A stretch of DNA of 45,776 nt from Betaproteobacteria bacterium (GTDB lineage: Bacteria; Pseudomonadota; Gammaproteobacteria; Burkholderiales; Thiobacillaceae): NCBI GenBank assembly GCA_007280375.1, contig QYQG01000021.1, positions 1 to 45,776 of the forward strand. The letters run 5' to 3'. How positions within the stretch are numbered: position 1 is the first letter of the stretch; each line of letters starts with the position of its first letter. The translations under genes and the position numbers were made by a program. The notes below the pieces were generated by a model. It made no database searches. It had not been told where the DNA came from and saw only the letters and a list, made by a program, of their open reading frames with translations. Below, piece after piece: positions 475 to 45,776 of the stretch.

Positions 475-475
475 G

Positions 476-26634: not shown

Positions 26635-26741
26635 AATTCCTCCTAAAGATAAGGTCGGGTTTCCGTGCCAAGCCCCAGCGGCAAGACACGATGGGACGCA
26701 TCATGCCGGATAGCAATCATCAGTGATAATCGATTCTTTCT

Positions 26742-26766: not shown

Positions 26767-26814
26767 GCATTTGTTAGGATTCCCAGCTCCTCTCCTAGCC
26801 CAAGGCAGCCCATC

Positions 26815-28094: not shown

Positions 28095-29474
28095 ATGGAT
28101 CAATCTGCACGCTACGCCGACCTGTCTTTGAAAGAAGACGACCTAATCAAGGGAGATAGGCACATCCTCGTCGCTTATCACATGCAGCCCGCTACGGGTT
28201 ATGGCTATCTGGAAACGGCGGCGCACATCGCCGCCGAGTCTTCCACGGGCACCAATGTGGAGGTGTGTACCACCGATGACTTCACTAAGGGCGTGGATGC
28301 GCTGGTGTATGAGATCGACGAAGCTAAAGGCGTGATGAAGGTCGCTTATCCGATCGAGCTGTTCGACCGCAACATGATCGACGGGCGCGCCATGATCGTG
28401 TCGTTCCTGACCTTGGCGATCGGTAACAACCAAGGCCAGGGCGATGTGAAGTGCCTGAAGATGCATGACTTCTATGTGCCGTGGTCGATGCTGCGTCTGT
28501 TTGATGGCCCGTCTAAAGATATCACCGATATGTGGGACATCCTCGGTCGCCCGCGCGTCAACGGCGGCTACATCGCCGGCACCATCATCAAACCGAAACT
28601 CGGCCTGCGTCCTGAGCCGTTTGCTAAGGCGGCCTACCAGTTCTGGCTCGGTGGCGACTTCATCAAGAACGACGAGCCGCAAGGCAACCAAGTGTTCTGC
28701 CCGGCCAAGAAGGTTTACCCGCTGGTGTATGACGCGATGAAGCGCGCCATGGACGAAACCGGCCAGGCCAAGCTGTTCTCCGCCAACATCACCGCTGACG
28801 ACCACTACGAAATGCTCGCTCGTGCCGATTTCCTTCTGGAAACCTTCGGCCCGGATGCCAATAAACTGGCCTTCCTGGTCGACGGCTATGTCGGCGGCCC
28901 TGGCATGGTGACCACCGCCCGCCGTCAGTACCCGGATCAGTACCTGCACTATCACCGTGCCGGTCACGGCGCAGTCACTTCGCCTTCCGCCCTGCGTGGC
29001 TACACCGCCTTCGTGCTGTCCAAGATGTCCCGTCTGCAAGGGGCTTCCGGCATCCATGTAGGCACGATGGGTTACGGCAAGATGGAAGGCGCGGCGGACG
29101 ACCGCGACATCGCCTATATGATCGAGCGTGATTCGGCTGACGGCCCGTACTACCACCAAGAATGGCACGGCATGAAGCCGACCACCCCGATCATCTCCGG
29201 CGGCATGAACGCCTTGCGTCTGCCGGGCTTCTTCGAGAACTTGGGCCACGGTAATGTGATCAACACCTCCGGTGGTGGTTCTTACGGCCATATCGACTCC
29301 CCGGCCGCTGGCGCGATCTCCCTGCGTCAGTCCTACGAGTGCTGGAAGGCCGGCGCTGACCCGATCGAGTTCGCGAAAGAGCACAAAGAGTTTGCCCGTG
29401 CCTTCGAGTCCTTCCCGGGCGATGCCGACAAGCTCTTCCCGGGCTGGCGTGACAAGCTGGGCGTGCATAAGTAA
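28095..29474 (+). CDS. cbbM: RuBisCO form II CbbM
   Basis: I place the start at ATG 28095 (GGAG at 28085-28088). [20 protein letters not shown]... is near-identical in pattern to Thiobacillus CbbM as I recall it. Active-site motifs [29 protein letters not shown] and GKMEG are intact. Confidence 0.96.
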
Positions 29475-29517
29475 TTGTGTGCCAAACCATCTTAGTGTTA
29501 TGCGCTAAGCGGTAAGG

Positions 29518-29550
29518 AACGCCCCCGGTACGCTGGGGGCGTTTTTATTT
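29518..29550 (+). terminator. Intrinsic terminator/attenuator after cbbM
   Basis: aacgccccc(29518-29526)/gggggcgtt(29535-29543) forms a 9-bp stem with an 8-nt loop, followed by TTTATTT. Confidence 0.75.
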
Positions 29551-29579
29551 CCAGATTAAAACCCTCACAGGATAACGCT

Positions 29580-30380
29580 ATGAACACAGAGCAATATACG
29601 ATACAGACCGAGCCGTATTACCAGTCGCAAGGTCGCGAGGTCGCCTTGTACGAGGCCGCCTATGCCGCGCGTCTGCCGGTGATGGTCAAAGGCCCGACGG
29701 GTTGCGGTAAGTCGCGCTTCGTCGAATACATGGCGTGGAAGCTAAAGCGGCCGTTGATTACCGTGGCCTGTAACGAGGATATGACGGCCAGCGATCTGGT
29801 CGGTCGTTACCTGTTGGACGCCAATGGCACGCGCTGGCTGGACGGTCCGTTGACGACGGCCGCCCGCATCGGGGCGATTTGCTACCTCGATGAGATCGTC
29901 GAGGCGCGTCAAGATACCACGGTGGTCATCCATCCGTTGACCGACCATCGCCGCGTCTTGCCCTTGGATAAAAAGGGCGAGTTGATCGCCGCGCACCCCG
30001 ATTTTCAGTTGGTCATCTCCTACAACCCCGGCTATCAATCGTTGATGAAGGAGCTGAAACAGTCCACCAAACAGCGTTTTGTCGGGTTTGACTTCGACTA
30101 TCCCGAGGCCGAATTAGAGACGCTGATCTTGGCCAAGGAGACCGGTCTAGACGCGGCCATGGCGGGTCGCTTGGTGAAGATCGCGGGGGTTGCACGCAAC
30201 CTGAAAGGCCATGGTCTGGATGAAGGCATCTCGACGCGCTTGTTGGTCTATGCCGCGACCTTAATCAAACACGGTGTGGCGGCACAGGATGCGTGTCGTA
30301 TGGCCTTGGTGCGCCCGCTCACCGATGACGCGGACATCCGCGAGACCTTGGATCACGCCATTGATTCGACCTTTGCGTAA
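29580..30380 (+). CDS. cbbQ: RuBisCO activase CbbQ (AAA+), copy 2
   Basis: 266 aa with Walker A GPTGCGKS and Walker [10 protein letters not shown]. Highly similar to copy 1. Confidence 0.95.
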
Positions 30381-30414
30381 CCCCCCCCAATGACCCGCTC
30401 AGGATAAACAGGCC

Positions 30415-32774: not shown

Positions 32775-33617
32775 TTAGGAGCAGACCTGCTGTAGCGTCC
32801 ACGGCAAGAGGTCGGTGGAGTTGATCGCACTAAAGCCTGAATCGAGGATAAAGCGTATGGCCTTGGTGGTCGGGGAGGTGATGCCGAGTGCCTGGGTGGG
32901 GCAATTGAAGGAGACGATGACCATGGGTCTCTCGCCGGTCGGATAGACCTTTTTGATGGTCGGGAGGATGGAGCCTAGGCCAAAGCCTTTGCTTGCTTCG
33001 TTGAGCGGGGTGGCGGTTGGGACCTTCGCCTGAACACTGGCGTTGGCTGGGGTCTGCCACCAACCTGCAGGGGTGATCGCCTCTGTCGCGGGTGCAACGG
33101 GGGTTGCCGGGGCCATCGTGACGGTGATCGGTTGGACGATATAAGGATTGGGGCGTGGCGACCAGGGGGCCGGTGCATAAGCGATAAAAGGCTCTGCGGA
33201 GGGGGTGATCTTGACCGTCATTTCCTGTTCGTTGGGCGGTGTTTGCAGCGGGGCTTGGGTGGCGAACGGGGGCATGAATACGAAGGGCGCGATCGTGGTG
33301 GCGGTGGCGTTTACGGCATCGGGCATCGCTGCGGTCAGCGTGGATGTTGTCGCCGCGGGTGCTACTGTGGTTACGGGTGTTTTGGCTACCGTCTGTTGGG
33401 CCTCTACGCGAGGCGCTGTCTTGGCGTTTGTTTTTTTCTTGGCGGCGTTGGTTGCCGATTTCTGAGCCTTCTGTGTCTTTGCGGTGAGCGGGGCGTTCGC
33501 GGCGGGTTTGTCCGCAGCTGCAGGCTGTGTCATCGCTAAGAAGATGCAGGGCACGATGGCCATCAGCGCCCTTAGGCCGTGTGTGCGTATATTCAGGACA
33601 TTACCGAGATTTTGCAT
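32775..33617 (-). CDS. Hypothetical secreted protein with an Ala/Thr/Pro-rich low-complexity region and a Cys-containing C-terminal domain
   Basis: 280 aa with an N-terminal signal-like segment LRALMAIVPCIFLAMTQPAAA. I did not recognise a family. Confidence 0.55.
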   Translation of the reverse strand: MQNLGNVLNIRTHGLRALMAIVPCIFLAMTQPAAADKPAANAPLTAKTQKAQKSATNAAKKKTNAKTAPRVEAQQTVAKTPVTTVAPAATTSTLTAAMPDAVNATATTIAPFVFMPPFATQAPLQTPPNEQEMTVKITPSAEPFIAYAPAPWSPRPNPYIVQPITVTMAPATPVAPATEAITPAGWWQTPANASVQAKVPTATPLNEASKGFGLGSILPTIKKVYPTGERPMVIVSFNCPTQALGITSPTTKAIRFILDSGFSAINSTDLLPWTLQQVCS

Positions 33618-33879
33618 AGCCTTACCTCACATAGGTCATTTTCATGAAGGCGTACCATACGCCGGTATGCGGGTGATGTAAATAAAACTGTCACGCAGGG
33701 TTTGTGCGTGGGGGTACGCGTTGTTTTTTGTAGTTTGTTGATATGTATGTATTTTTTGTTTTTAGCCTGTTTTTGATGGGATGATTTAATCCGCGCGTAG
33801 TGCATTTTAACTATGTTATTTGTCGGGCTATCCAATTGCACGCATTTGCGGTACAAAGCTCAGGTCTAAACAAACGAGG

Positions 33880-34293
33880 ATGACGGAGATGAAACAAAAT
33901 CGGATGTCAGTGATGTGCTTGAGCGTGCTGAGCGTGATAGAGCATGTGGGTTTGATCGTGATTACCTTGGCGACCATCAGTGCGATGGCGACGGAGGTGT
34001 TGACGATCGTGGGTGCGGGCGTGGCGACCTTGGCGGATCTTTTGCTCTTGTTCTTGTATCTAGAGGTTATCGCGATGGTGGGCTTGTATTACAAGTCGGG
34101 CAAGTTGCCGGTGCGCTTCCCGATCTATATCGCGATCGTTGCCATGGCGCGCTACCTCGTCTTGGAGATGAAGACTCTGGAGACGATGCAGATCATCGGT
34201 GTGGCGGGTGCGGTCTTGTTGCTGACCTTGGCCGTCTTCGCGATCCGTTTTGGCCATGTGCGCTATCCGTATAGCGAGGATGGAAGCACATAA
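33880..34293 (+). CDS. psiE: PsiE-family (phosphate-starvation-inducible) membrane protein
   Basis: FLYLEVIAMVGLYYKSGKLPVRFPIYIAIVAMAR parallels E. coli PsiE [35 protein letters not shown]. The start is uncertain: 33880 or 33889, while the ORF track gives 33820. Confidence 0.8.
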   Translation: MTEMKQNRMSVMCLSVLSVIEHVGLIVITLATISAMATEVLTIVGAGVATLADLLLLFLYLEVIAMVGLYYKSGKLPVRFPIYIAIVAMARYLVLEMKTLETMQIIGVAGAVLLLTLAVFAIRFGHVRYPYSEDGST

Positions 34294-34331
34294 CGAAAAC
34301 ACATAACGTTCGGTTACACTGACGACGCGAG

Positions 34332-34366
34332 CAAAACCTCCTGCCTACGGGCTGGGGGTTTTGTTT
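34332..34366 (+). terminator. Probable intrinsic terminator after psiE
   Basis: aaaacctcc(34332-34340)/gggggtttt(34353-34361) forms a stem with one mismatch, followed by GTTTT. Confidence 0.5.
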
Positions 34367-34395
34367 TATGAGGTTTTAGAAAGAGGATAAAGAGA

Positions 34396-35742
34396 GTGAC
34401 TGATACTGCAACTTTGCCGCGCCCCGCACAACCTAGTCTGTTGGAGGCCTTTGGCTATTGGCTGAAACTGGGCTTCATTAGCTTTGGCGGCCCGGCCGGT
34501 CAGATCGCTATGATGCATCAGGAGTTGGTCGAAAAACGCCGCTGGATCTCCGAGCATCGTTACCTGCACGGCCTTAACTACTGCATGTTGTTGCCCGGCC
34601 CCGAGGCCATCCAACTGGCGATCTACATCAGTTGGTTGATGCACGGTGTGAAGGGCGCGTTGCTGGCGGGGGTGTTGTTCTTCCTGCCGGCGTTTGTGTT
34701 GCTTTCGGCCTTGGCGGCGGTGTACCTGAATTACGGTGATGTGCCGCTGGTGCAAGGGATCTTCTACGGCATCAAGCCGGCGGTGGTGGCGGTGGTGCTG
34801 TTCGCGGCCTGGCGTATCGGCTCGCGTGCATTGAAGAATAAGGTGTTGTGGGGCATGTCCGCCTTGGCCTTCGTCGGCATCTTTTTCTTTCAGATTGGCT
34901 TTCCGTGGATCGTGCTGGTGGCGGCCATCTTGGGCGCGCTCGGCGGAAAATGGCTGCCGGCCAAGTTCAAGGGTGGCGCGGGGCATGGCGCATCAAATAA
35001 AGAATACGGCCCGGCCTTGATCGATGACGATACGCCGACGCCGGCGCATGCGCGTTTTTCGTGGACGAAGTTTGCCGTGACGACGCTGGCCTTTGTCGTG
35101 ATCTGGGCGGTGGCGATGTGGGCCATCAGCGGTCAGCAAACGCTCACGAACATGGGCGAGTTTTTCACCAAGGCGGCCTTTCTGACCATCGGCGGGGCCT
35201 ATGCCGTGTTGCCGTATGTCTATCAGGGCGGCGTGGATCAGTTTGCATGGCTGACCGGCGCGCAAATGATGGATGGCCTCGCGCTCGGTGAGACCACGCC
35301 CGGCCCCTTGATCATGATCGTGACCTGGGTGGGCTATCTAGGCGGCGTGGCCAAGCAGGTGTTCGGGAGCACCGTCGCGGCCGGTCTGGCCGGTGCTGCG
35401 GCGGCGACTTTCTTCACCTTTTTGCCCTCGTTCTGGTTCATCTTGGCCGGTGGCCCGTGGGTGGAATCGACTCGCGGCGAGATCAAGTTTACCGCGCCGT
35501 TGACCGGCATCACCGCCGCCGTCGTCGGCGTGATCATCAACCTCGCCGTGTTCTTCGCGTGGCACACCTTTTGGCCGCAGGCGACCGAGGCCGCACCGTT
35601 TACGGGCCCGTTTGACGCGTTGTCGGTGGTGGTCGCCATCGCCGCCTTTGTTGCCTTGTGGCGCTATAAGGCGGACATCATGAAGGTCATCGGCGCGTGT
35701 GCGTTGGTGGGCCTCGCCTACACCCTAGCTTTAGGAGCTTAA
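34396..35742 (+). CDS. chrA: ChrA (chromate ion transporter, CHR) family permease
   Basis: 448 aa with a GTG start 8 nt after AAGAGGA. LEAFGYWLKLGFISFGGPAGQIAMMHQELVEKRRWISE is a classic CHR-family N-terminus, and the protein is two-domain length. Confidence 0.88.
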   Translation: MTDTATLPRPAQPSLLEAFGYWLKLGFISFGGPAGQIAMMHQELVEKRRWISEHRYLHGLNYCMLLPGPEAIQLAIYISWLMHGVKGALLAGVLFFLPAFVLLSALAAVYLNYGDVPLVQGIFYGIKPAVVAVVLFAAWRIGSRALKNKVLWGMSALAFVGIFFFQIGFPWIVLVAAILGALGGKWLPAKFKGGAGHGASNKEYGPALIDDDTPTPAHARFSWTKFAVTTLAFVVIWAVAMWAISGQQTLTNMGEFFTKAAFLTIGGAYAVLPYVYQGGVDQFAWLTGAQMMDGLALGETTPGPLIMIVTWVGYLGGVAKQVFGSTVAAGLAGAAAATFFTFLPSFWFILAGGPWVESTRGEIKFTAPLTGITAAVVGVIINLAVFFAWHTFWPQATEAAPFTGPFDALSVVVAIAAFVALWRYKADIMKVIGACALVGLAYTLALGA

Positions 35743-35744
35743 CG

Positions 35745-36059
35745 ATGGATCGCACGATTACCCCCAACACCTTGCAAACCGAGTTGGCCGGAAAATATCT
35801 TTTGGATGTGCGCCGAGCGGACGACATGAAGGCCAGCACGGAACACCTGGCCGGCGCGCATTGGCAAGACCCGACGCAGATCGCAGAGTGGGCCGACACC
35901 CTGCCTAAGGATCAAGAGATTGTGCTGTATTGCGTGCGCGGCGGCGCGGTGTCCAACAGCGTGGTCGATACCTTGCAGGCCAAGGGCTTGCGGGCGCGTT
36001 TCATTGAAGGCGGCATCGAGGGTTGGAAGGCGGCCGGCGGCACGGTGGTCAGCAAATGA
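35745..36059 (+). CDS. Single-domain rhodanese-like protein, translationally coupled to chrA
   Basis: ATG 35745 lies 2 nt after the chrA stop, with AGGAG at 35733-35737. 104 aa with the active-site loop LYCVRGGAVS. Confidence 0.85.
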   Translation: MDRTITPNTLQTELAGKYLLDVRRADDMKASTEHLAGAHWQDPTQIAEWADTLPKDQEIVLYCVRGGAVSNSVVDTLQAKGLRARFIEGGIEGWKAAGGTVVSK

Positions 36060-36155
36060 AAGACTCTATGTGGTTTGTAATGGGTAAACCACGCCGTCCA
36101 TGGCCTATAAAGAAGGCGGTAAAGGCTGCTGTTGGCGGGCTGGTGAATAGCGCTG

Positions 36156-36178
36156 TTCGCGGGCAAGCCCGCTCCTAC
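36156..36178. repeat. REP-type palindromic element, copy A
   Basis: TTCGCGGGCAAGCCCGCTCCTAC contains the internal palindrome GCGGGC-aa-GCCCGC. It is the exact reverse complement of 38862-38884. Confidence 0.85.
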
Positions 36179-36197
36179 GGGTGAATAACGGCTATTT

Positions 36198-38708
36198 CTA
36201 GACACATAGAGCCGCTTTTTGTCCTCGGCCTCCGTCGGCGAGTGAGCGGCCACTCTTAGCGATCAACACCGGCCATTCGGCAAGGCCGATAAGCCGGTCG
36301 GTGGGGCTGTTGGGTAGCAGACGATTCAAGCCGCCGTGGCGTTTGCCGAGGATGATGAGGTCGGCTCCGATCTCGCGGGCGAGCGTGGCTAGGGCGTTGG
36401 CGGGTGCGCCGTGGAGGATGCGAACCTCGACGCTGACGCCTTCGGCACGCAACTCTGCGGCGGCATCCTGGGTCATTTGGGTCAGGGCTGCGGCTGAGGG
36501 CGAGCCTGCTTTGACGACCGTGGCCAGCGTCATCGGTACGCCGGTGGCGCGCGCGAGCGTGGCGGCAAGTTCTAGGACGGTAATCGCGGAGGGGTTGGCG
36601 TCATAGCCAACCAAGATGTGCCGTTGCCAGAGGCCGTGTCCGTGTGGACAGACCAAGACCGGGCAGGGGGCCTCGTCGATGAGCCGTGCGGCATGGGCGC
36701 CGACCCAGCGATCGGTCAGTCCCTTGGGCGGGGTGCGGCCGATAACGAGGATCTGGGTGTCGGCTTGGGTGGCGGCATGGATGACGGCGCGTATCGGGTC
36801 AACGCCTTCGACGATGAGGTCGTTGCAGGGAACCGCTAGGTGGGCGGCCTCGTCATGGACGAGGGAGAGGCGTAGCTGTGCCCGTTCTGGCTCCGCGCCG
36901 GGTTGCACCATGGTCATGACATCGAGGGTGACGCCCATGCGTTGGGCGAGGGCGATGGCGAGGCTGCGTGGGGCGACACTGTGGGCGTTGCCATCGGTGG
37001 CCAGCATCAGGCGCAGGCGACGGTGGCCGTCGGGCAGGACATTGCCGTGACATTCTTTGAAGATGCGTGTCTTGCAGCTACGGCAGATGTCCGGGTCTAG
37101 CGTCCAGTAGACCGCACCGGCGACATTGGAGCCGCGCGGGAAGAAGCCGCCTTCGCCGATGTCTTTGAGGTATTCGCCTTGACGCAGGAAACGGTGGATC
37201 GAGTCACGCAGGGCGTAGAAATAGAGGCCGCCGCCCATGCGCCGCCGCCGCCGTGCCTCTTGGGCCAGCATCTCGGCCCCGGCGACATCGATGAAGTTGA
37301 TCGCGGGGGCGTAGATGACGACAGTTTTGTGTTGCAGGTTATCGGTGTCGATCTGTTGCAAGGCCCCTTGGATGTGATCGACCGCGCCGAAATAGATCGA
37401 GCCGTTGAGGCGGACGAAGCGCATCTGCGGACATTCGGGGTGACCCTTGGCCTCGGTGATCTGGCAGGCGGCGGCGCCCTCTTGCCCGGCGGGGACAACG
37501 GGGACGATCTCGGGGCGCGAGGTGCGGTAGAGATACATGATGAGCGACAACAAGACCCCGGCAAAGATGCCCATCTCGAGGTTGATTAGCGTGCCGCCCA
37601 GGGTGACCCAGAGGATGATCGCTTCAGGTTTACAGGTCTGCCAGATGGCCTTGATATGGTGGAAATCGATCAGTCCCCAGGCGACGAGGAAGAGGATGCC
37701 GGCCATCGCGGCGGTGGGGAGATAGGCGGCGAGCGGCGCGACGAGGAGCAGGATGATGACGAGGAAGACGGCGGCGAAGACGGTGGCCAACGGGGTGCGT
37801 GCGCCGGCCTCAAAGTTGACGCCACTGCGGTTGAACGAACCGGAACTGGCGTAGCCGGAGAAGAAGCTGCCGACCAAGTTGGAGAGGCCTTGACCGACGA
37901 ATTCTTGGTTGCCATCGATGCGTTGTTCGGTCTTGCTGGCGATGGAGCGTGAGATGGATACGGCCTCGGTGAGGGCTAATAAGGTGATGACCAGCGCGGG
38001 CATGGCGGTTTGTTTGAGGGCGTCGATGGAGAAATCGGGCAGGGATAGCGGCGGCAGGCCGGCGGGGAGTGCGCCCACGGTCTTGATGCCGGTGATCGCT
38101 TCGCCGCCAAAGAAGATATTTAGGCCGGCGGCGACAACGCTGCTGACGATCATGGCGGCGATCATGTAAGGGAATTTGGGGACGAATCTGCGCGCCAAGA
38201 GACCCGTGACTAAGGTGAGCGCACCGATGCCCAGCACAAAGGGGTTGATGGCCGCGAACTGGACGACGAGCTGATGCAGGGTCTCGTAGAACGGCGTGCC
38301 GCGCGGGATGGGGATGCCAGTGAAGTTTTTGATCTGGCTGCCGGCAATCAACACGGCGGCGCCGGCGGTAAAGCCGATCACCACGGTGTGCGAGATGAAG
38401 TTGACCAAGGCGCCCATACGCGCCAGACCGAGGATGAGTTGATAAAGGCCGACCAGAAAGGTGAGGGTCAAGACAAGCTGGATGTATTCGCCGCTACCCG
38501 GTTCGGCGAGGCTGTGCAGGGCGGCGAAGATGGCGATGGAGATCGCCGTGGTGGGGCCGGATACGAGGTGCCAGCTCGACCCGAACAGGGCGGCGATGAT
38601 GGCCGGCACCATGGCGGCGTAGAGGCCAAATTGCGGCGGCAGGCCGGCGATGGTGGCGAAGGCCACGCCTTGCGGTAGGACGATCATCGCCCCGGTCAGC
38701 CCGGCCAT
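36198..38708 (-). CDS. SulP-family anion transporter fused to STAS plus two tandem universal-stress-protein (USP) domains (copy 2). The native start is unresolved.
   Basis: 836 aa from the first ATG. It has a SulP core (AGLTGAMIVLPQGVAFATIAGLP..., VGALPAGLPPLSLP), a STAS segment (RFVRLNGSIYFGAVDHI) and two USP-like modules (LRLMLATDGNAHS...PVLVCP and HILVGYDANPS...WPVLIAK). SulP-like coding continues upstream of the ATG to 38819. Confidence 0.85.
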   Translation of the reverse strand: MAGLTGAMIVLPQGVAFATIAGLPPQFGLYAAMVPAIIAALFGSSWHLVSGPTTAISIAIFAALHSLAEPGSGEYIQLVLTLTFLVGLYQLILGLARMGALVNFISHTVVIGFTAGAAVLIAGSQIKNFTGIPIPRGTPFYETLHQLVVQFAAINPFVLGIGALTLVTGLLARRFVPKFPYMIAAMIVSSVVAAGLNIFFGGEAITGIKTVGALPAGLPPLSLPDFSIDALKQTAMPALVITLLALTEAVSISRSIASKTEQRIDGNQEFVGQGLSNLVGSFFSGYASSGSFNRSGVNFEAGARTPLATVFAAVFLVIILLLVAPLAAYLPTAAMAGILFLVAWGLIDFHHIKAIWQTCKPEAIILWVTLGGTLINLEMGIFAGVLLSLIMYLYRTSRPEIVPVVPAGQEGAAACQITEAKGHPECPQMRFVRLNGSIYFGAVDHIQGALQQIDTDNLQHKTVVIYAPAINFIDVAGAEMLAQEARRRRRMGGGLYFYALRDSIHRFLRQGEYLKDIGEGGFFPRGSNVAGAVYWTLDPDICRSCKTRIFKECHGNVLPDGHRRLRLMLATDGNAHSVAPRSLAIALAQRMGVTLDVMTMVQPGAEPERAQLRLSLVHDEAAHLAVPCNDLIVEGVDPIRAVIHAATQADTQILVIGRTPPKGLTDRWVGAHAARLIDEAPCPVLVCPHGHGLWQRHILVGYDANPSAITVLELAATLARATGVPMTLATVVKAGSPSAAALTQMTQDAAAELRAEGVSVEVRILHGAPANALATLAREIGADLIILGKRHGGLNRLLPNSPTDRLIGLAEWPVLIAKSGRSLADGGRGQKAALCV

Positions 38709-38861
38709 CGCGTCGTCGCGCAGGGTGGCGCGGTTGACCTGTGGCCACCATAGGCGATAGGCGACAAAGGGGCGGAGCCAAGCGGGGGTATGTGGGCGGG
38801 AAAAAGATAACCTTAAAGATCACCTTGGTATTCTACGCCAACGAACACACCGCCTGTCATT

Positions 38862-38884
38862 GTAGGAGCGGGCTTGCCCGCGAA
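38862..38884. repeat. REP-type palindromic element, copy B (inverted relative to copy A)
   Basis: GTAGGAGCGGGCTTGCCCGCGAA is a 23/23 reverse-complement match to 36156-36178. Confidence 0.85.
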
Positions 38885-38891
38885 AACACGC

Positions 38892-40157
38892 CTAGCTCGG
38901 ATGCCAGCCCACGGTAAGCAACATGATGAAGAAGCCGATGACATAGGCGACGGCGATATGCCAACCGTGGCGTAACCACAAGCCCACCGAGCGTGCCTCG
39001 GGGAAGATGCTGGATAAGGCGACGCCAGCGGAGGAGCCGAACCAGATCATCGAGCCACCAAAGCCGACCGCATAGGCGAGCACGCCCCAGTCATAGCCGC
39101 CCTGCGTTAAGGCCAGCGCGGTGAGCGGGATGTTGTCGAACACGGCGGAGACAAAACCTAGGCCAAAGGCGGTCTCCCAGGCGGCCACGGGGAGTTTTTC
39201 GACCGGCATCATCGAGGCGCAGAGCACTAGGGAAAGCAGGAACACGCTGCCCTTGAAGGCCTCGGGGAGGAGACTCCATTCGGGTCGTTTGAAAGGGGTG
39301 GCGGCCAAGAGTGCGACCCAGACGGCGACGCCGATGAAGGGAAAGGCCGTGGCGATGTTCGAATATTGGGTGTTGACGACGATGTTGGCGCCGATGGCAG
39401 CGGCGAGGATGAGGCCGACAACCCCGATGCGCCCCCAGTCTATGCTCAGGTTGGAGGTGTCGCTGGCGTGGATGGGGGCATAACGGGCCTGTTGCTTGGC
39501 CGCGATGATGCCGAAGATAAACAGCGCCGGGATGGCGGCGACATAGGCGTGCAGCACCTCCATGGGGCCGATGCCGCTGATCCACATCATGGTGGTGGTG
39601 GTATCGCCGACGACGGATCCCGAGCCGCCGGCGTTGGAGGCGGCGACGATGGCGGCGAGATAGCCAATATGGACCCGGCGCCGGTACACCGTGGCCGCGA
39701 CGGTGGCGCCAATCAAGGCGGCGGCGATGTTGTCCAGAAAGGAGGACAGCACGAAGATCATGATGAGAAGGACGAAGCCGCCACGCCAGTCGCCGGGCAG
39801 ATAGCGCGGGATAATGGCGGGGATGCCAGATTCTTCAAAGTGACGGGCCAATAGGGAAAAGCCGAGCAGCAAGCCGAGCAGATTGGCGATTGTGACCCAT
39901 TCGTGGCCGAGGTGAGTGAATAGGCCCTCTAGCCCGGTGATGCCGCGAAAGTCGGTGAAGCCGAGTTTGTAGAGGATGATGCTGGCCAGCCCAGTGAGCG
40001 CGACATAGAGGGTGGAATGGTGGAAGACGGCTACGCCCAACAGGGTAAGGGCGAAGAAGATGAAATCGATCGGGATGCCCGCGAGTTCGGGGCCGGTGGC
40101 GGCCAGCGCCGGCAGCGGTAAGCACAGTAAAACCAGACAAAGAGAGACGCGATTCAT
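38892..40157 (-). CDS. nhaD: NhaD/ArsB-superfamily permease, probable NhaD-type Na+/H+ antiporter
   Basis: The ORF track extends to 40454. A plausible start is ATG 40157 (MNRVSLCLVLLCLPLPALAATG...). 421 aa, polytopic, with FFALTLLGVAVFHHSTLYVALTGLA resembling the NhaD N-terminus as I recall it. Confidence 0.65.
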   Translation of the reverse strand: MNRVSLCLVLLCLPLPALAATGPELAGIPIDFIFFALTLLGVAVFHHSTLYVALTGLASIILYKLGFTDFRGITGLEGLFTHLGHEWVTIANLLGLLLGFSLLARHFEESGIPAIIPRYLPGDWRGGFVLLIMIFVLSSFLDNIAAALIGATVAATVYRRRVHIGYLAAIVAASNAGGSGSVVGDTTTTMMWISGIGPMEVLHAYVAAIPALFIFGIIAAKQQARYAPIHASDTSNLSIDWGRIGVVGLILAAAIGANIVVNTQYSNIATAFPFIGVAVWVALLAATPFKRPEWSLLPEAFKGSVFLLSLVLCASMMPVEKLPVAAWETAFGLGFVSAVFDNIPLTALALTQGGYDWGVLAYAVGFGGSMIWFGSSAGVALSSIFPEARSVGLWLRHGWHIAVAYVIGFFIMLLTVGWHPS

Positions 40158-40272
40158 GGGGTATCTATAAGCGATATGAGGGTGTAATAGGGGGTTAATT
40201 CTAGCCACTTCGAGGCGCGGCTGGCGTAAAATAAACCTATCCCCACCGCCTGTATGCCCTTCGGAGGACACT

Positions 40273-40692
40273 ATGTTTAGACAGCTTGTACCCATTGATG
40301 GTTCTGATTCCGCGTACCGCGCTCTGCGTTTTGTGTGTGCCGGCCCCTGTGATGATACCGAGATCCATGTGCTCAATGTCCAAGAACCTATCGTGGACTG
40401 GGAGGTGCGTCGTTTTATGCGCGATGACGAGATCGAGGCGATGTTACGCGCCAAGGCCGAAACCTTCTTGGCCGAGGCCGAGGCGATAGCGGTTGCGGCG
40501 GGGCGGCGCGTCGTGCGTCATCTCTACCTAGGTGAAACCGCGCACGGCATCGCCGAGCAGGCTAAGGCCTTGGCCTGCGATCAGATTGTCATGGGGTCGC
40601 GCGGCATGAGCGCCTTGCAGGGCATGCTGTTAGGCTCGATCTCGAGCAAGGTCTTGCATCTGGTGGACATCCCCGTGACGCTGGTGAAATAG
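40273..40692 (+). CDS. Universal stress protein (UspA family)
   Basis: 139 aa with GGAGGA SD. ...QIVMGSRGMSALQGMLLGSISSKVLHLVDIPVTLVK is a typical USP C-terminal ATP-binding motif. Confidence 0.9.
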   Translation: MFRQLVPIDGSDSAYRALRFVCAGPCDDTEIHVLNVQEPIVDWEVRRFMRDDEIEAMLRAKAETFLAEAEAIAVAAGRRVVRHLYLGETAHGIAEQAKALACDQIVMGSRGMSALQGMLLGSISSKVLHLVDIPVTLVK

Positions 40693-40694
40693 CG

Positions 40695-41751
40695 ATGCAT
40701 ACGCTCCCCATACAGCAACGGATCGAGTGGTTGTTTGACCTAGCCTATCGGCACGCGGATGAGTTTGTGATGCCGGAGGCCTTCTTGGCACGCAAGCGTT
40801 ATCTGGCCGAACACCCAACGGCGATCTTGGTGCTTAAGTGCATGGATGGGCGTATCAATATTCCGATCGCGACCAATACGCCCGCAGGCATTATTCAGCC
40901 CTTTCGAAACTTGGGCGGGATGTTTAACCTTGGTTGGCCGCATCTGGGGGAGACGCTGGCCGATGCGGTCAATAAGTCGGTGAATCGTGGTCGCCGTAGT
41001 CTGATCATGATTACCTATCACTACTCTAAGGGTAGCGAGCGTCGCGGCTGTGCGGGGTTTAACTACTGCACAGATGCGGCGCGCGCACACCTTTGAGATC
41101 AAGGCGCAAGTGGAATCGCTCTTTGGTGATGCGCATGGTACGGTGTATCCGTTGGTGTGCGGGTTTGAGACCGATGAGGATGCCATTATCTTGCATGGCG
41201 TGACGGGCGAGTTGCTGAACATGAGCGATGTCAGTGCTCAAGGTGCGGCGGGGCGCGAGGGGTTGCCGGCGCAGGTGCTGCGCCTCTTCCCGGACATGCC
41301 GACGCAGGTGCGCGTCGACTTGTTGCCCTTGCTGCTGGGCAATCTTGATCACATCGCTGAGGTGCGTCAGGCGGCGCGGCCTTTGGCGGTCGAGCACCGC
41401 GAATGGATGATTTGCGTGGGCCGCGGCTTTGATTGGTTGCACATGCCGAATCTGGCCCTCATCATCGGTCCCTATAGCCCAGATCTGGCGGACCCGATTC
41501 GTAAGGCGGCGGGCATCATCGAGGCCAATATGCAGGCGGGACGCATCCCTGACGATGGTTTTTTGTTATTGGCCTCTGCGCCTTATGACGAGGTGGGCGT
41601 CGATCGTGCCCGCGCCGTACTGAAGGCGCGTTTTATGGGCGAGTTTGCCGCTGAGGTAATCCAGGCATCGCATCCGGCGGTCGCGGCCAAGATGACGCGC
41701 AAAACGGGCGTTCTGAACTGGGGGACGCGATCCTTGGAGGTGTTTCGTTAA
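40695..41751 (+). pseudogene. CsoSCA-like protein, paralog 2, interrupted by a frameshift at ~41079-41090
   Basis: Two ORFs (40695..41096 and 41050..41751) together align end-to-end with paralog 1 at 19946-20995. The frames switch at DAARAH|TFEIKAQ, inside a (GC)4(AC)2 tract. Confidence 0.8.
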
Positions 41752-41853
41752 GAATTTGATGGCCGCTTTAGTGGTACACTGCGTCAAAATTCAGCCTGTC
41801 GGCGCGTGTGTTGGCGCACGAAATTATTTATCAATCTAAAAATAGCCTATAAA

Positions 41854-43992
41854 ATGAACGGTTTTTCTCGTTACCTCCCTTTTGTGAAATGGTTTCCGCT
41901 GGACAAGGACACCTTGAAATTTGATTTCTTGGCGGGGATTACCGTTGCCTTGATTATCATCCCGCAGTCGATGGCGTATGCCCAATTGGCGGGGATGCCA
42001 GCCTATTACGGCCTTTATGCCGCGTTTTTGCCGGTCGCCGTCGCAGCGTTGTTTGGGTCGAGTAATTTTTTAGGCACGGGCCCGGTCGCGGTGGTGTCGT
42101 TGTTGACCGCGTCGTCGCTGGCCCCGTTGGCCGCGCCTGGCTCAGAACAGTTTATCGCCTTGGCTATCTTGCTGGCTTTGCTGGTGGGTCTCGTTCAGAT
42201 CACCTTGGGCGTGTTCAAGCTGGGTGTTGTGGTCAACTTTCTGTCGCATCCGGTCATTGTGGGATTCACTAATGCGGCGGCGATCATCATCGGTTTGTCA
42301 CAGGTGTCCAAGTTGTTTGGGGTGCCGATGGGTCGCTCCGAGCATTTTCTGAACGACATCTGGGGCGTGTTTGCGCAGATTGGCGATACGCACCTGCCCA
42401 CCTTGGCGATGGGCGCGTTGGCGATCGCGTTGATGTGGGGGATGAAGCGATTCGTGCCTAAATGGCCGGGGGTCTTGGTGGCGGTAGTGGTCACGACAGC
42501 CCTGTCGTGGGGAATGGGGTTTGAGAAAAACATGCCGGGGACCACCGCGCAGATCATGAGCCCCGATCTGGCGGTGAGGGTCAACGAGGTTTATCGCGCG
42601 CAACAAGAACAGCACCGCGTGACTGAGCATAAATCACGCCTCAGCGCGGCCTTGACCTACGCGCGTAAGCACGAGAAGGTCGAGAGCGTAGAGACGGCGC
42701 GTGTGGCGTACGATTTAGAATTGGCGGAGATCGCCTTGCTGAAGGCCGAGGCAGAGACCGCATTACTCAAAAAGAGCCTGCGCCAGACATGGGTGGTGCG
42801 GGTTAAGGATGGCGTAGGCGGCACGGCAATCTATCTTGCCGATCATGCGCCTGCTGACCGGCAGACCGATGGCTATCGCTATCGTATCCGGTCTATCCAA
42901 GGGGATGGTTTCCAGTTGGTCGGTGGCGGCGAGGTGGTGGGTGCCGTGCCCGAGGGTCTGCCGGCGATGGCGATGCCCGACCTTAACTGGGATGCGCTGG
43001 CCTCTTTGTTGTCGGCGGCGATCGTCATTTCCTTGGTGGGCTTTATGGAGGCGATCTCAATCGCTAAGGCCTTGGCAACTAAGGCCAAACAAAAGGTCGA
43101 TCCTAATCAAGAGTTGATCGGTCAGGGCTTGGCCAATATCGTCGGCGGTTTTACGCAGGCGTTTCCGGTGTCAGGTTCGTTTTCGCGCTCGGCGGTTAAT
43201 TTTGACGCAGGCGCTAAGACCGGGATGGCGGCGGTGATTACGGCGGTGTTTGTGTTGATTGCCTTGTTGTTTTTGACCCCCTTGCTCTATCACCTGCCGC
43301 AGGCGGTGTTGGCCGCAATCATTATCATGGCGGTGGCGGGCTTGGTGAACTTCGAGGCGGTCAAGCATGCATGGCAGGCGAGTCGGCATGACGGGGTGGC
43401 GGCAATCGTGACCTTTGTTGCAACGATGTTGGTGGCGCCGCATCTGGACAAGGGCATTATGGTCGGTGCCGGATTGGCGATTTTGCTTTTTCTCTATCGC
43501 ACCATGACCCCGCGTGTGGCTATTTTGGGTCGTTACCACGATGGCACGCTGCGTGATATTAAGGTCAATCCTAATCTGGCAACCAGTAAACATGTTGTGG
43601 CGATGCGTTTTGATGGTTCGCTTTATTTTGCCAATGTCGCCCATTTTGAGGATGCGGTGTTGGAGGTGGTGGCCGATCATAAGGAGGCAACATTTATCCT
43701 CGTTGTCGGTGATGCCATCAACCAACTCGATGCCTCGGGTGAAGAGGTCGTGCATCACCTTGTCGATCGTCTCCGCGAATCGGGTATCGAGTTGATCTTC
43801 TCTGGTCTAAAGAAACAGGTTCTTGATGTTATGCGACAGACGCATCTGTTCGATCTGATCGGCGGGGGGAACATCTTTGCTACGGAGAATCAAGCCTTGG
43901 CGGCAATCTACGAGCGACTTGGCGCAGACGCGGCCGATGACCTGCTCTGTCCGTTGCCCTCACCGTGGGGGCAAACCGCATCGCATTCATGA
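41854..43992 (+). CDS. SulP-family anion transporter with STAS domain and a ~130-aa insertion in an extramembrane loop (copy 3)
   Basis: I place the start at ATG 41854 (MNGFSRYLPFVKWFPLDKDTLKFDFLAGITVALIIIPQSMAYA). The SulP core and STAS domain (VVAMRFDGSLYFANVAHFED) are present. Residues ~226-357 have no counterpart in copies 1 and 2. Confidence 0.88.
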   Translation: MNGFSRYLPFVKWFPLDKDTLKFDFLAGITVALIIIPQSMAYAQLAGMPAYYGLYAAFLPVAVAALFGSSNFLGTGPVAVVSLLTASSLAPLAAPGSEQFIALAILLALLVGLVQITLGVFKLGVVVNFLSHPVIVGFTNAAAIIIGLSQVSKLFGVPMGRSEHFLNDIWGVFAQIGDTHLPTLAMGALAIALMWGMKRFVPKWPGVLVAVVVTTALSWGMGFEKNMPGTTAQIMSPDLAVRVNEVYRAQQEQHRVTEHKSRLSAALTYARKHEKVESVETARVAYDLELAEIALLKAEAETALLKKSLRQTWVVRVKDGVGGTAIYLADHAPADRQTDGYRYRIRSIQGDGFQLVGGGEVVGAVPEGLPAMAMPDLNWDALASLLSAAIVISLVGFMEAISIAKALATKAKQKVDPNQELIGQGLANIVGGFTQAFPVSGSFSRSAVNFDAGAKTGMAAVITAVFVLIALLFLTPLLYHLPQAVLAAIIIMAVAGLVNFEAVKHAWQASRHDGVAAIVTFVATMLVAPHLDKGIMVGAGLAILLFLYRTMTPRVAILGRYHDGTLRDIKVNPNLATSKHVVAMRFDGSLYFANVAHFEDAVLEVVADHKEATFILVVGDAINQLDASGEEVVHHLVDRLRESGIELIFSGLKKQVLDVMRQTHLFDLIGGGNIFATENQALAAIYERLGADAADDLLCPLPSPWGQTASHS

Positions 43993-44014
43993 GGCGGCGG
44001 GTTAGAACACGATA

Positions 44015-45460
44015 ATGTTACACACGCTGCTGGCTTTACCCTTGTTGGGTGTCGTGCTGATCGCGCTGTTGCCCGTGCGCTGGACGCGTGTGATCGCGTT
44101 GATGACCGCCGGGGTGACGCTGGCCTTTTCGCTCGTGTTGCTGGTGTCGTTTGATCTGCAAGAGGCGGCGCCACAGTTGTTTGAGACGCATCGCTGGAAC
44201 CCGCGGCTCGGCTCGGCCTTTTCGTTGGCCATTGATGGGTTTTCGTTGCCGATGATCTTGCTGGCCACGCTGTTAGTCGTGATCTCGGTGTTGGCCTCGG
44301 GCGGCATTCGGACGCGTCAAAAAGGCTATTACGCCCTGATCTTGATGTTGGAAAGCGCCATGCTCGGGGTGTTTTCGGCACGCGATTGGTCGTTGTTTTA
44401 TGTGTTTTGGGAACTGACCCTGATCCCGTTGTTTTTCTTGATCGACCGTTACGGCGGCGTGCATCGTAGCCGTGCGGCGCTGAACTTCGTGCTCTATACC
44501 ATGGGCGGTTCGACCTTCATGCTCATCGCACTGTTGATGCTCTATGATCTTTCGGCGGCGCATAGCTTTGATATGACCGTCTTGCGCGAAACGGGGCGCA
44601 GTCTGCCGGCCGAGACGCAGGCCTGGTTGTTTGCTGGGTTGTTGATCGGCTTCGGCGTAAAGATGCCGATCTTTCCATTGCATGGTTGGCTCCCGCTCGC
44701 GCATGTGGAGGCGCCGAGTCCGGTTTCTATCCTGTTGTCGGGCATCCTGCTGAAGATGGGCAGTTATGGTCTGATCCGTGCGGCGAGTGCCTTGCCCGCT
44801 GGGGCGCAGGTTTTGCAGCCGCTTTTAGTTGCCTTGGGCTTGATCAGTTTGATCTACGGCGGGGTGTTAGCCTGGCAACAACGCGACCTCAAAAAGATGG
44901 TGGCCTATTCGTCCTTCTCGCATATGGGGGTGGTCTTGTTGGGCATCGCCTCGTTAAATGCGCTGGGTTTTACGGGGGCCATCGTGCAGATGGTGGCGCA
45001 TGGCCTAGTCGCGGGCGCGCTGTTTTTGCTTATAGGCTTGCTGTATGAGCGCACGCATACTCGTGATATTGGCGATTACGCCTCGCTGGTGCGCGTGATG
45101 CCGCGCTTCGCATTCTTTACGGTGCTGGCCTTGGTCGCGGCCGTGGGCTTTCCGGGGACGGTGGGTTTCGTCGCTGAACTGCATGTCTTGCTCGGTGCCT
45201 TTGATCAGTTTGGTCTCTGGGCGGCCTTGCTGTCGTTGGGTGTGTTGATCTCGGCGGCCTATGCCTTGCGCACGGTGGGGCGGCTCTTCACCGGCCCGAT
45301 TAGTCCAACCATGCAGCAGATCCCCGACCTGACGCGAACCGAGTTTATGGCCGCCGCCGTACTGACCAGTGGCATCTTGGTGCTAGGGGTGTTTCCGATG
45401 GGCTTGTTGGCGCTGGTGAGCCCGTCGGTCGAGCGCCTGGCGCGCCTGTTCGGCGCATGA
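44015..45460 (+). CDS. dabB: DabB: PF00361-type proton-conducting membrane subunit (NuoM/NdhD-like) of a DAB inorganic-carbon pump
   Basis: 481 aa. LAIDGFSLPM, FYVFWELTLIPLFFLI, GVKMPIFPLHGWLPLAHVEAPSPVS, VAYSSFSHMG and IVQMVAHGLVAGALFLLIGLLYERTHTRD mirror E. coli NuoM motifs. A DUF2309 gene follows directly. Confidence 0.85.
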   Translation: MLHTLLALPLLGVVLIALLPVRWTRVIALMTAGVTLAFSLVLLVSFDLQEAAPQLFETHRWNPRLGSAFSLAIDGFSLPMILLATLLVVISVLASGGIRTRQKGYYALILMLESAMLGVFSARDWSLFYVFWELTLIPLFFLIDRYGGVHRSRAALNFVLYTMGGSTFMLIALLMLYDLSAAHSFDMTVLRETGRSLPAETQAWLFAGLLIGFGVKMPIFPLHGWLPLAHVEAPSPVSILLSGILLKMGSYGLIRAASALPAGAQVLQPLLVALGLISLIYGGVLAWQQRDLKKMVAYSSFSHMGVVLLGIASLNALGFTGAIVQMVAHGLVAGALFLLIGLLYERTHTRDIGDYASLVRVMPRFAFFTVLALVAAVGFPGTVGFVAELHVLLGAFDQFGLWAALLSLGVLISAAYALRTVGRLFTGPISPTMQQIPDLTRTEFMAAAVLTSGILVLGVFPMGLLALVSPSVERLARLFGA

Positions 45461-45476
45461 GCGTGAGGTAAAAGGG

Positions 45477-45776
45477 ATGAACACGCATACGAACGCGCCT
45501 ACTTCGACAGACCCACAGGCAGCCTCTAAGGCGCGCCTGGACGCGTTGCTGCACCACTTGGAGCATGTGTTGCCCGCGCAGGCGCCGATTCGTGATTTCG
45601 TTCATCACAACACCTTGCATGGCTACCAGCATTTGGCATTTCCGGATGCCTTGCGTGCAGCGCGGGAGCTGACCGGAGCCGAGGGTTATCTGCCGCCGGA
45701 GCGTTTTCGTGTCTTGTATGCCGAGGGGCGTATCGATGCGACGGACTTGGACGCGGCCTTGGAGCAGGCTGATATC
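45477..45776 (+). CDS. dabA: DabA (DUF2309/UPF0753) N-terminal 100 codons; continues beyond the window
   Basis: ATG 45477 lies 8 nt after GAGG. Hand translation ...LLHHLEHVLPAQAPIRDFVHHNTLHGYQHLAFPDALRAARELTG matches the P-I-x-D-F-(I/V)-H-H-N-T-L-H signature of UPF0753/DUF2309 proteins. Confidence 0.85.
   Translation, partial: MNTHTNAPTSTDPQAASKARLDALLHHLEHVLPAQAPIRDFVHHNTLHGYQHLAFPDALRAARELTGAEGYLPPERFRVLYAEGRIDATDLDAALEQADI

Follow-up and report, generated by a model that had tools for sequence, protein, structure and literature searches.

We examined a 45,776-nucleotide (nt) stretch of contig QYQG01000021.1 (GenBank assembly GCA_007280375.1), which comes from a betaproteobacterium placed in the Thiobacillaceae and is referred to here, in its entirety, as the window. 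At its right-hand end lie five co-oriented genes on the forward strand, with intergenic gaps of 2, 102, 22, and 16 nt as determined from the open reading frame (ORF) listing and by direct reading. These genes encode a universal stress protein (usp), a homolog of the carboxysomal carbonic anhydrase (CA) CsoSCA (csoSCA2), a SulP-family transporter (sulP3), an antiporter-like membrane subunit (M1), and the first part of a DabA protein (dabA). This layout, including coordinates and gaps, was correctly described in an original prediction for the locus, and each ORF is a real gene by homology to Pfam and NCBIfam families. The prediction had treated the five genes as the whole unit, but the cluster runs on past the end of the window. 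We read the remainder on the window's own source contig (L090, JGI 3300022553, 104.7 kb; L numbers denote the contigs and loci that we compared). M1 is followed there by dabA, whose product is 1,080 amino acids (aa) long, and by genes for one NuoL-class subunit of 519 aa (L) and two NuoM-class subunits of 507 aa (M2) and 496 aa (M3). The junctions from M1 through M3 measure 16, 4, -4, and -1 nt, and 113 nt separate M3 from the next gene, which is unrelated. The full unit is eight genes (usp, csoSCA2, sulP3, M1, dabA, L, M2, and M3) in about 13 kb.

We judge it probable, although well short of assured, that the window holds the 5' half of an inorganic-carbon acquisition cluster within a carbon-fixation island, and that the eight genes are best explained overall as a CO2/bicarbonate acquisition cluster that recently lost its CA copy. 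The island contains two RuBisCO operons, a split alpha-carboxysome locus, an SbtA-like gene, a Chr gene, and two further SulP genes. Positions of the main features are given in Table 1.

Table 1. Positions of the cluster genes and neighboring features in the window
Feature	Position	Strand	Description
usp	40273-40692	+	Stand-alone universal stress protein, 139 aa; csoSCA2 starts 2 nt later
csoSCA2 pseudogene	40695-41751	+	Compact non-carboxysomal CsoSCA homolog; 352 aa if repaired
Frameshift site	41076-41090	+	2-nt deletion in (GC)n/(CA)n tract
csoSCA2-sulP spacer	41752-41853	+	AT-rich, 102 nt
sulP3	41854-43992	+	SulP/SLC26 transporter with STAS domain, 712 aa
SulP3 insertion	42529-42921	+	About 130 aa between the two transport-domain halves
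M1	44015-45460	+	NuoM/NdhD-class antiporter-like subunit, PF00361, 481 aa
dabA, 5' part	45477-45776	+	First 100 codons (DUF2309/DabA); gene cut by the window end
Permease, ArsB/NhaD/CitMHS superfamily	38892-40157	-	421 aa, divergent from usp
SulP-STAS-USP-USP fusion transporter	36198-38708	-	Conserved divergent neighbor of the cluster
Intact CsoSCA2 paralog	19946-21025	-	359 aa, directly after cbbL-cbbS-cbbQ-cbbO
Carboxysomal CsoSCA	737-2293	-	518 aa, in cso locus
csoS2	2321-4330	-	In cso locus
csoS4A/B	226-727	-	csoS4-like ORFs, cso locus
SbtA-like gene	4827-5807	-	Beside cso locus, upstream

DabA is encoded with four antiporter-like subunits

DabA matched PF10070 with 63.1 bits over the 100 residues encoded in the window and with 768 bits over the full gene on L090. 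Its zinc-site motifs are intact (CMDDR at residue 559 and GHGS...H...CGAC at residue 746), and the DabA of a relative scored 215 bits against DabA2 (9rd0_A). The beta-CA zinc-site motifs of DabA are needed for the activity of DAB complexes (PMC13144422).

The gene before dabA had been given the title DabB. In published structures, DabB is NuoL-like (PMC13144422). A DabB subunit would be expected to have 15 TM helices with a short lateral helix and to be encoded beside dabA. M1, in contrast, matched Proton_antipo_M with 226.9 bits and TIGR01972 (NDH_I_M) with 497.9 bits against a cut-off of 263.8. Its best matches in the PDB were NuoM, ND4, and NdhD (299 to 256 bits), and DabB2 (9rd0_B) was not in its best 60 PDB matches. 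M1 is NuoM-class, in keeping with the label "NuoM-like PF00361 gene" that the same prediction used in its text, and the NuoL-class partner (L), in which Proton_antipo_N is present, lies beyond the window on the far side of dabA. Each of the four membrane subunits is a PF00361 protein of full length. When aligned with Escherichia coli NuoM, M1 and M3 keep the channel residues E144, K234, K265, and E407, while the corresponding residues of M2 are S, R, K, and A, so that three of the four are lost. The resulting five-subunit DabA module (M1, dabA, L, M2, and M3) departs from the two- or three-gene operons of DAB complexes.

PF00361 subunits also build Mrp antiporters. DabA and the four antiporter-like subunits could accordingly exchange cations for protons in the manner of Mrp, or generate membrane potential, as the module was first read in the MpsAB and COGNAT work; the COGNAT authors had in mind an exergonic complex that exports ions (PMC5700660). 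SulP3 would then serve a sulfur oxidizer as a carrier of sulfate or of some other anion of sulfur. By score, SulP3 falls outside the BicA orthologs, and in Thiobacillus it heads a hydrogenase-like complex; both points fit such a reading as well. Even so, we consider it very improbable. The small Mrp subunits MrpC, E, F, and G are all missing from the cluster, and DabA keeps the motifs that DAB activity requires. Furthermore, the cluster has RuBisCO, carboxysome, SbtA, and Chr genes around it, and its recurrences are again found next to cbb operons and csoSCA2.

SulP3 carries an additional domain

SulP3 is a SulP/SLC26 protein with a C-terminal STAS domain. It matched Sulfate_transp (PF00916) with 355 bits in two stretches, STAS (PF01740) with 58.7 bits, and TIGR00815 with 436 bits against a cut-off of 380, and Foldseek matched it to SLC26 structures at an E value of 1e-15. 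The subfamily to which it belongs is large and well conserved, with members of about 706 aa that share 67 to 86% identity. The insertion between the transport-domain halves (approximately residues 226 to 356) is real. It is present in all 19 homologs that we aligned (20 family members in total), where it is the least conserved segment. An AlphaFold2 (AF2) model gave the insertion a predicted local distance difference test score (pLDDT) of 72 to 89, with helices at 237 to 273 and 279 to 310 and strands at 313 to 357; outside the insertion, the model was poor (mean pLDDT, 54). The insertion is predicted to be a helical hairpin with a small beta unit, and the 7+7 inverted-repeat topology of SLC26 proteins would place it in the periplasm. 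When the model was searched with Foldseek, only the SLC26 and STAS parts were matched and the insertion had no match.

Thiobacillus genomes contain a six-gene cluster that is led by a transporter of the SulP3 type (L076, 11148 to 20210; L096, 10001 to 19567) and resembles a group-4 [NiFe]-hydrogenase or Ehr complex. Its genes encode a NuoL-like protein, a NuoH-like protein, a 220-aa protein, a PF00361 protein, a NuoCD fusion, and a NuoB-like protein. In T. denitrificans, SulP and USP are also found as separate adjacent genes (L096, 2984 to 5265).

The CA-like gene is a recently broken member of the CsoSCA2 family

By profile and predicted fold, the CA-like protein is a CsoSCA homolog, as the prediction of a carboxysomal CA family had held, and we assign it to CsoSCA2, a published compact CsoSCA family. 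Homologs of the repaired protein are 345 to 374 aa long. When a CsoSCA2 family profile was compared with PDB sequences, the top five matches were all CsoSCA (E of about 7e-5). Similarly, an AF2 model of CsoSCA2 (pLDDT, 68) had the CsoSCA structures 8thm, 9g4t, and 2fgy as its sole Foldseek matches at E < 1e-3 (E of about 1e-12; template modeling [TM] scores of 0.61 to 0.67). The Zn-site residues C49, D51, R53, H109, C119, and H235 are conserved, which covers the zinc ligands, the Asp/Arg dyad, and the equivalent of His397. Among aligned CsoSCA2 homologs, the first four of these are invariant and C119 is nearly so, and these five residues, a complete beta-CA set of Cys-x-Asp-x-Arg, His, and Cys, align with C176, D178, R180, H245, and C256 of the window's true CsoSCA.

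The repaired protein is not a carboxysomal CsoSCA, for which PF20687, PF20686, and PF08936 are expected together: it has no N-domain, the part that binds RuBisCO, and does not follow csoS2. In the alignment it starts where the catalytic region of the true CsoSCA begins, with a short N-terminus of about 40 aa replacing the 144-aa CsoSCA N-domain; direct reading of this N-terminus revealed no signal peptide. Against Pfam, it scored 18.6 bits for CsoSCA_cat, which is under the gathering score of 21.5, and had no match to CsoSCA_N or CsoSCA_C. In the reducing cytosol, carboxysomal CsoSCA is turned off through a vicinal Cys pair (Cys283/284 in H. neapolitanus; bioRxiv 10.64898/2026.04.02.716132). 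The pair is absent from both CsoSCA2 copies of the window and from two homologs, which have G-A, G-D, G-E, or G-S there (G-A or G-D in the window's copies); the true CsoSCA has FCCG at these columns.

CsoSCA2 was named in 2022 and described as "extremely widespread" but unstudied (Front Microbiol, PMC9164163). The authors of that paper reported copies next to cbbLS, for example in Sulfuricella, and speculated that CsoSCA2 may form other enzyme complexes; they are silent on SulP or DAB neighbors. We found the name in that study and one other relevant paper, and our literature search turned up no biochemical study of the family.

In the window, csoSCA2 is split into an ORF of 133 aa (40695 to 41096) and another of 233 aa (41050 to 41751). 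More than 2,195 homologs, each about 350 aa long, aligned with the repaired 352-aa product and needed no gaps (65 to 84% identity). A DNA alignment with the in-frame copies of L081, L001, and L002 located a 2-nt deletion near 41081 to 41086, where the window reads GCGG--CGCGCGCACACC. The identical truncated 133-aa product occurs on five contigs from at least three assemblies (JGI 3300022553, JGI 3300013092, and Logan SRR6481037), and because it recurs in at least three independent assemblies, the break is real. Together with the lack of any other frameshift in the window relative to its relatives, this ruled out a sequencing or assembly error. Programmed frameshifting was ruled out by the fact that all homologs are in frame at the deletion site. 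An old, decayed pseudogene was also ruled out. Of 154 columns without variation among homologs, only 2 differ in the repaired protein; intact controls span this value, which indicates that the loss was recent. A protein search of 5.8 billion clusters returned no near-identical intact allele. From these comparisons, the inactivation of csoSCA2 appears to be real and recent, and it is apparently fixed in this lineage. It is not a feature of all relatives, as had been considered possible, since a sister population with the identical gene order has an intact 352-aa csoSCA2.

The window's second CsoSCA2 copy could cover for the broken one. This intact paralog is 63% identical to the repaired protein and 79% identical to Thiobacillus copies that follow cbbO, and it scored 30.4 bits for CsoSCA_cat, above the gathering score. 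It is the last gene of a cbbLSQO-csoSCA2 string, in which cbbO-cbbQ-cbbS-cbbL occupy 21442 to 26634 (minus strand), and a gene for a LysR-type regulator (18975 to 19919, plus strand) converges on it.

The cluster is conserved as a unit and CsoSCA2 is a facultative neighbor

The sister population is represented by JGI contigs L081 to L088, which carry genes for a SulP-STAS-USP protein and a permease on the minus strand, followed by usp, an intact csoSCA2, sulP3, M1, dabA, L, M2, and M3, with order and spacing equal to those of the window. Between the two populations, the block from the permease to M3 (about 14 kb; 4878 to 19279 on L090 versus 3008 to 17390 on L087) is 64 to 88% identical in protein and 77 to 79% identical in DNA, whereas the flanks are 98% identical. 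This uniform divergence between near-identical flanks indicates that the whole cassette was replaced as a unit by recombination.

We surveyed 80 species-level loci anchored on CsoSCA2, scoring the cluster when it lay within 10 kb. The M1-dabA-L-M2-M3 cluster was found in 17 of these loci, which came from Thiodiazotropha, Rhodocyclaceae, Thiobacillus, and gammaproteobacterial metagenome-assembled genomes (MAGs), and it usually converged on the 3' end of csoSCA2 (csoSCA2 was convergent to the cluster in 14/68 loci). In the same survey, csoSCA2 lay directly after cbbO in six loci and had a short SulP gene directly upstream in nine, with the short gene co-oriented in Hydrogenophaga (9 loci). In 38 loci the flanks reached 9 kb or more on each side, and 24 of these had at least one inorganic-carbon or cbb neighbor. 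Six further loci were anchored on the cluster itself. A SulP3-type gene headed five of them, and csoSCA2 was adjacent in two, including one from cultured Thiohalomonas denitrificans; the other four had no csoSCA2 within reach.

Across these sets, the order sulP3, NuoM-class, dabA, NuoL-class, NuoM-class, NuoM-class was observed on L090, L087, L097, and L099 to L102, with SulP3 heading the cluster in L087, L097, L099, L100, L101, and L102. The cluster thereby recurs in Thiodiazotropha, Rhodocyclaceae, Thiobacillus, Thiohalomonas, and gammaproteobacterial MAGs. SulP3 is a near-constant member, and CsoSCA2 is a frequent but facultative neighbor. The originally suggested check on co-occurrence therefore came out in favor of the prediction, in that its components recur together in several proteobacterial lineages and keep their order in the sister population. 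The proposed operon held in part: the unit is conserved, but csoSCA2 is mostly convergent to the cluster and often missing. Two other arrangements were seen. In Thiobacillus locus L073, a single csoSCA2 lies between a cbb operon and a convergent DabA cluster. In Thiohalomonas denitrificans (L098, 11713 to 14559), a co-oriented pair of a SulP gene (579 aa) and csoSCA2 converges on a DabA cluster that has no leading SulP3, which makes a third arrangement linking SulP, csoSCA2, and the DabA cluster. A 381-aa gene after M3 in L102 was considered as a candidate CsoSCA2 and ruled out.

These data bear on the earlier suggestion that the CA-like protein partners a membrane component. In its full form, the suggestion is a five-gene operon in which the CsoSCA-like protein physically binds the SulP STAS domain or an antiporter-like subunit, yielding a CA-transporter metabolon under USP control. 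The 2-nt usp-csoSCA2 junction, the co-orientation with sulP and the DabA genes, and the equal gene order in the sister population are all in its favor, as are the short co-oriented SulP gene directly upstream of csoSCA2 in Hydrogenophaga (9 loci), the SulP-csoSCA2 pair of Thiohalomonas, and the published speculation about other CsoSCA2 enzyme complexes (PMC9164163). However, none of the contigs sampled from this lineage has an unbroken copy of this csoSCA2, and no intact near-identical allele was among the clusters searched. Inactivation at the population level rules out that its product is a partner on which SulP or the membrane subunits depend. Where csoSCA2 is convergent, it must be on a separate transcript, and its mostly convergent orientation and its frequent absence beside the cluster (4/6 cluster-anchored loci) argue against a stoichiometric complex. 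The unit also has eight genes and not five. On balance, we find a physical metabolon improbable.

Alternatively, the locus could consist of two unrelated neighboring units, namely, a decaying usp-csoSCA2 remnant and an independent sulP3-M1-dabA-L-M2-M3 operon that has its own promoter, with shared regulation as the only connection. The AT-rich spacer may hold an internal promoter for sulP3. It contains a promoter-like match just before sulP3 (41828 to 41855, 9/12) and a weak hairpin (41805 to 41820). In addition, sulP3 is the first cluster gene in other genomes (L097 and L099 among them), nhaD-usp-csoSCA2 occurs without a DabA cluster within 10 kb in L001 to L003, and the csoSCA2 copy here is dead. 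Yet csoSCA2 adjoins the DabA cluster in at least six lineages, either upstream and co-directional or downstream and convergent, and the nhaD-to-M3 block diverged uniformly between its 98% identical flanks and so traveled as one piece. We regard two independent units as unlikely. The spacer was not conserved with L081, comparisons of the window with L081 or L001 yielded no conserved intergenic motifs, and an Rfam scan of 33000 to 45776 found no RNA element at E ≤ 0.1.

The surroundings of the cluster are rich in transport and carbon-fixation genes

USP matched PF00582 with 91.9 bits and carries the ATP-binding motif G-x2-G-x9-G-S (GSRGMSALQGMLLGS at residue 108), which is consistent with the nucleotide-sensing role first proposed for it. 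By domain and motif, it would belong to the ATP-binding (UspFG-type) class. A GGAGGA Shine-Dalgarno sequence lies 5' of usp, and the usp-csoSCA2 pair recurs with equal spacing in L001 and L081 to L086.

The divergent permease gene is present as a JGI gene call on L090 and also adjoins usp-csoSCA2 in L001 to L003 and L081. Its product scored 26 bits for CitMHS, with both the CitMHS and the NhaD models under their cut-offs. It is 81% identical to the sister-population copy, compared with 98% for flanking genes. One of these, the SulP-STAS-USP-USP protein, is 98% identical between populations and matched Sulfate_transp (324 bits), STAS (33 bits), and Usp (112 bits in two stretches). Its divergent pairing with SulP3 is also seen in L097. 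The start of this gene is ambiguous. The first ATG, GTG, or TTG gives 836 aa, compared with 861 aa in homologs and 868 aa in the JGI call, and the open frame reaches 38804 on the minus strand, where it begins at a Phe codon.

In or just past these 46 kb lie six candidate inorganic-carbon transporters: the SbtA-like protein, SulP1 (9918 to 11573), Chr (34396 to 35742), the SulP-USP fusion, SulP3, and the DabA cluster (44015 to the end). The Chr gene adjoins genes for PsiE and a rhodanese. Between psiE and the form II RuBisCO operon sits a gene (32775 to 33617, minus strand) for a 280-aa protein that is rich in Ala, Pro, and Thr, has a hydrophobic N-terminus, and matches nothing in Pfam. Within 21442 to 32712, form I cbbLSQO (minus strand) and form II cbbM-cbbQ-cbbO (plus strand) diverge from a single cbbR (26815 to 27774).

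At the left end of the window, the true CsoSCA matched CsoSCA_N (113 bits), CsoSCA_cat (362 bits), and CsoSCA_C (169 bits), and its neighbors matched CsoS2_M (483 bits) and, for the SbtA-like gene, Sbt_1 (377 bits). The cso genes are about 21 kb from cbbLS and have no cbbLS alongside, which matches the split cso/cbbLS arrangement described for Thiobacillaceae. With csoS2, a true csoSCA, and csoS4A/B, the organism has carboxysome genes, and a natural carboxysome-free CO2-concentrating mechanism was ruled out.

A possible mechanism for the cluster

From the gene identities and motifs, the continuation of the cluster on its source contig, its conservation and linkage, and the reality of the frameshift, we infer a mechanism for CO2 and bicarbonate acquisition. 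DabA is a zinc protein of the beta-CA type whose active-site motif is intact. It would bind to the NuoL-class subunit, as happens in DAB complexes, and use the proton gradient to power one-way hydration of CO2 to bicarbonate. Since the neighborhood encodes no NDH-1 redox module, the proton gradient would be the sole source of coupling. M1 and M3 could lengthen the membrane arm and provide further routes for protons, by analogy with complex I or Mrp, while M2 might have a structural role similar to that of DabC. In parallel, SulP3 would bring in bicarbonate or a related anion, and the ATP-binding USP could tune CsoSCA2 or the SulP carriers to the energy state of the cell. Where intact, CsoSCA2 would act as a cytosolic CA without the carboxysomal redox switch, equilibrating bicarbonate with CO2 for non-carboxysomal RuBisCO or for carboxylases that use bicarbonate. 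The copy in the cluster was presumably lost by a 2-nt slippage deletion, leaving the cbb-linked copy. This loss may have been neutral through redundancy. It may also have been favored, if a cytosolic CA beside the pumps would dissipate the bicarbonate pool. Classic work cited in PMC9894237 found that a cytosolic CA collapsed the carbon pool of a cyanobacterium. In that study itself, DAB2 together with a cytosolic CA aided RuBisCO-dependent growth of E. coli without carboxysomes and was not harmful in C. necator.

Several observations weigh against an acquisition cluster of this kind. Co-transcription across the 102-nt gap is putative, and promoter and terminator scans gave counts no higher than those of shuffled controls. 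L is only a candidate member of the DabB clade, since its score was 200 bits against NdhF/NuoL and 116 bits against DabB2. SulP3 reached only 131 bits against a cut-off of 880 for the BicA equivalog NF050096 and so does not qualify by score as an ortholog of BicA. Thiobacillus genomes, that of T. denitrificans among them, have the SulP3 type at the head of the group-4-hydrogenase/Ehr-like cluster and not of DabA, so its link may be to antiporter-like modules in general and not to CO2 uptake. Finally, the idea of an adaptive loss of CsoSCA2 comes from one lineage.

A bolder proposal would treat the module as a distinct class of vectorial CA with higher stoichiometry: a redox-free "mini complex-I membrane arm" that drives the capture of CO2 and represents the unreduced ancestor of DAB1, with DabC as a relic of an M-type subunit. 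The module would form a unit with the insertion-bearing SulP and, optionally, CsoSCA2, whose loss would be the adaptive removal of a short circuit. Taken jointly, these claims are speculative, and we are inclined to doubt them.

Significance and relation to known systems

DAB pumps are being studied, and engineered into crops and production strains, as machines of two or three subunits. Many sulfur- and iron-oxidizing proteobacteria and lucinid symbionts carry a five-subunit version that is regularly led by an unusual SulP carrier. The repeated linkage reported here also gives CsoSCA2, a widespread CA family, a context that can be tested, and the pair of near-identical populations with an intact and a broken CA offers a comparison that bears on the benefit or harm of a cytosolic CA to a carboxysome-bearing cell that pumps inorganic carbon. 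The importance of the cluster is tempered by the fact that all of its parts come from known families, that the core neighborhood was noted in 2017, and that functions here are read from sequence. Interest would rise if the extra antiporter-like subunits prove to be needed for CO2 uptake.

The combination of genes had been thought undescribed, which is true of some of its parts. SulP, NuoM, DabA, and NuoL genes were reported together in 2017 (PMC5700660), and CsoSCA2 was named in 2022 (PMC9164163). In the DAB literature, however, we found no discussion of the linkage with CsoSCA2 and USP or of the five-subunit composition, and the 2017 paper is the sole prior mention that we found of DabA with several PF00361 subunits. 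The new part is the joining of usp-csoSCA2 to the head of the previously noted SulP-NuoM-DabA-NuoL cluster. The five-subunit module and the recurrent link to CsoSCA2 are under-appreciated. More generally, the co-location of genes of the inorganic-carbon toolkit with Calvin-cycle genes has been reviewed (PMC10880623).

The closest precedent is "clade C" of the COGNAT analysis (Biol Direct 2017, PMC5700660), in which ybcC (COG3002, now DabA) precedes a nuoL homolog, often in the neighborhood of SulP (COG0659) and NuoM (COG1008) genes. The module order described here matches this arrangement. The authors suggested that more membrane subunits would move more ions. Their paper differs in that it predates the function of DAB, proposed an ion-exporting enzyme, and contains no CsoSCA2, USP, SulP insertion, or link to RuBisCO and carboxysomes.

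Functionally characterized relatives are the DAB/DAC/MpsAB systems, which share with our cluster a PF10070 DabA that carries the zinc-site motifs CxDxR and H...C and is encoded beside a NuoL-class PF00361 subunit. DAB2 consists of DabA and DabB, and DAB1 has in addition a small, non-conducting, non-Pfam DabC (PMC13144422; bioRxiv 10.64898/2026.05.01.722082). DAB1 is the more similar of the two in that DabA is long here (1,080 aa, compared with 1,046 aa for DabA1) and the degenerate M2 recalls DabC. In contrast to DAB complexes, however, the module has five genes with three full-length NuoM-class subunits, two of which have intact proton-channel residues. Moreover, the gene before dabA is NuoM-class and not DabB, and a SulP gene regularly leads the cluster. 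The cyanobacterial NDH-1MS/MS' complexes (NdhD3/NdhF3/CupA/CupS) likewise combine a vectorial CO2-hydrating protein with one NuoL-class and at least one NuoM-class subunit, but the CA-like protein here is DabA, which is unrelated to CupA.

The remaining comparisons concern the two genes at the head of the cluster. As in SulP bicarbonate carriers such as BicA and in SulP transporters fused or adjacent to a beta-CA, a SulP/STAS protein stands beside a beta-class CA homolog and inorganic-carbon genes. SulP3 differs from these in having an extra domain of about 130 aa between its transport repeats, and its most constant neighbor is an antiporter-like module (of the DabA or Ehr/Hyf type) and not a CA. 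The CA-like protein agrees with published CsoSCA2 (PMC9164163) in its length of about 350 aa, its short two-helix N-terminus, its two-domain CsoSCA fold, its complete active-site residues, and its location outside carboxysome loci, and the window has a further copy after cbbLS(QO), as described for the family. What sets this locus apart from the published cases is that the copy in the cluster is frameshifted and that CsoSCA2 is linked to SulP3/DabA and USP.

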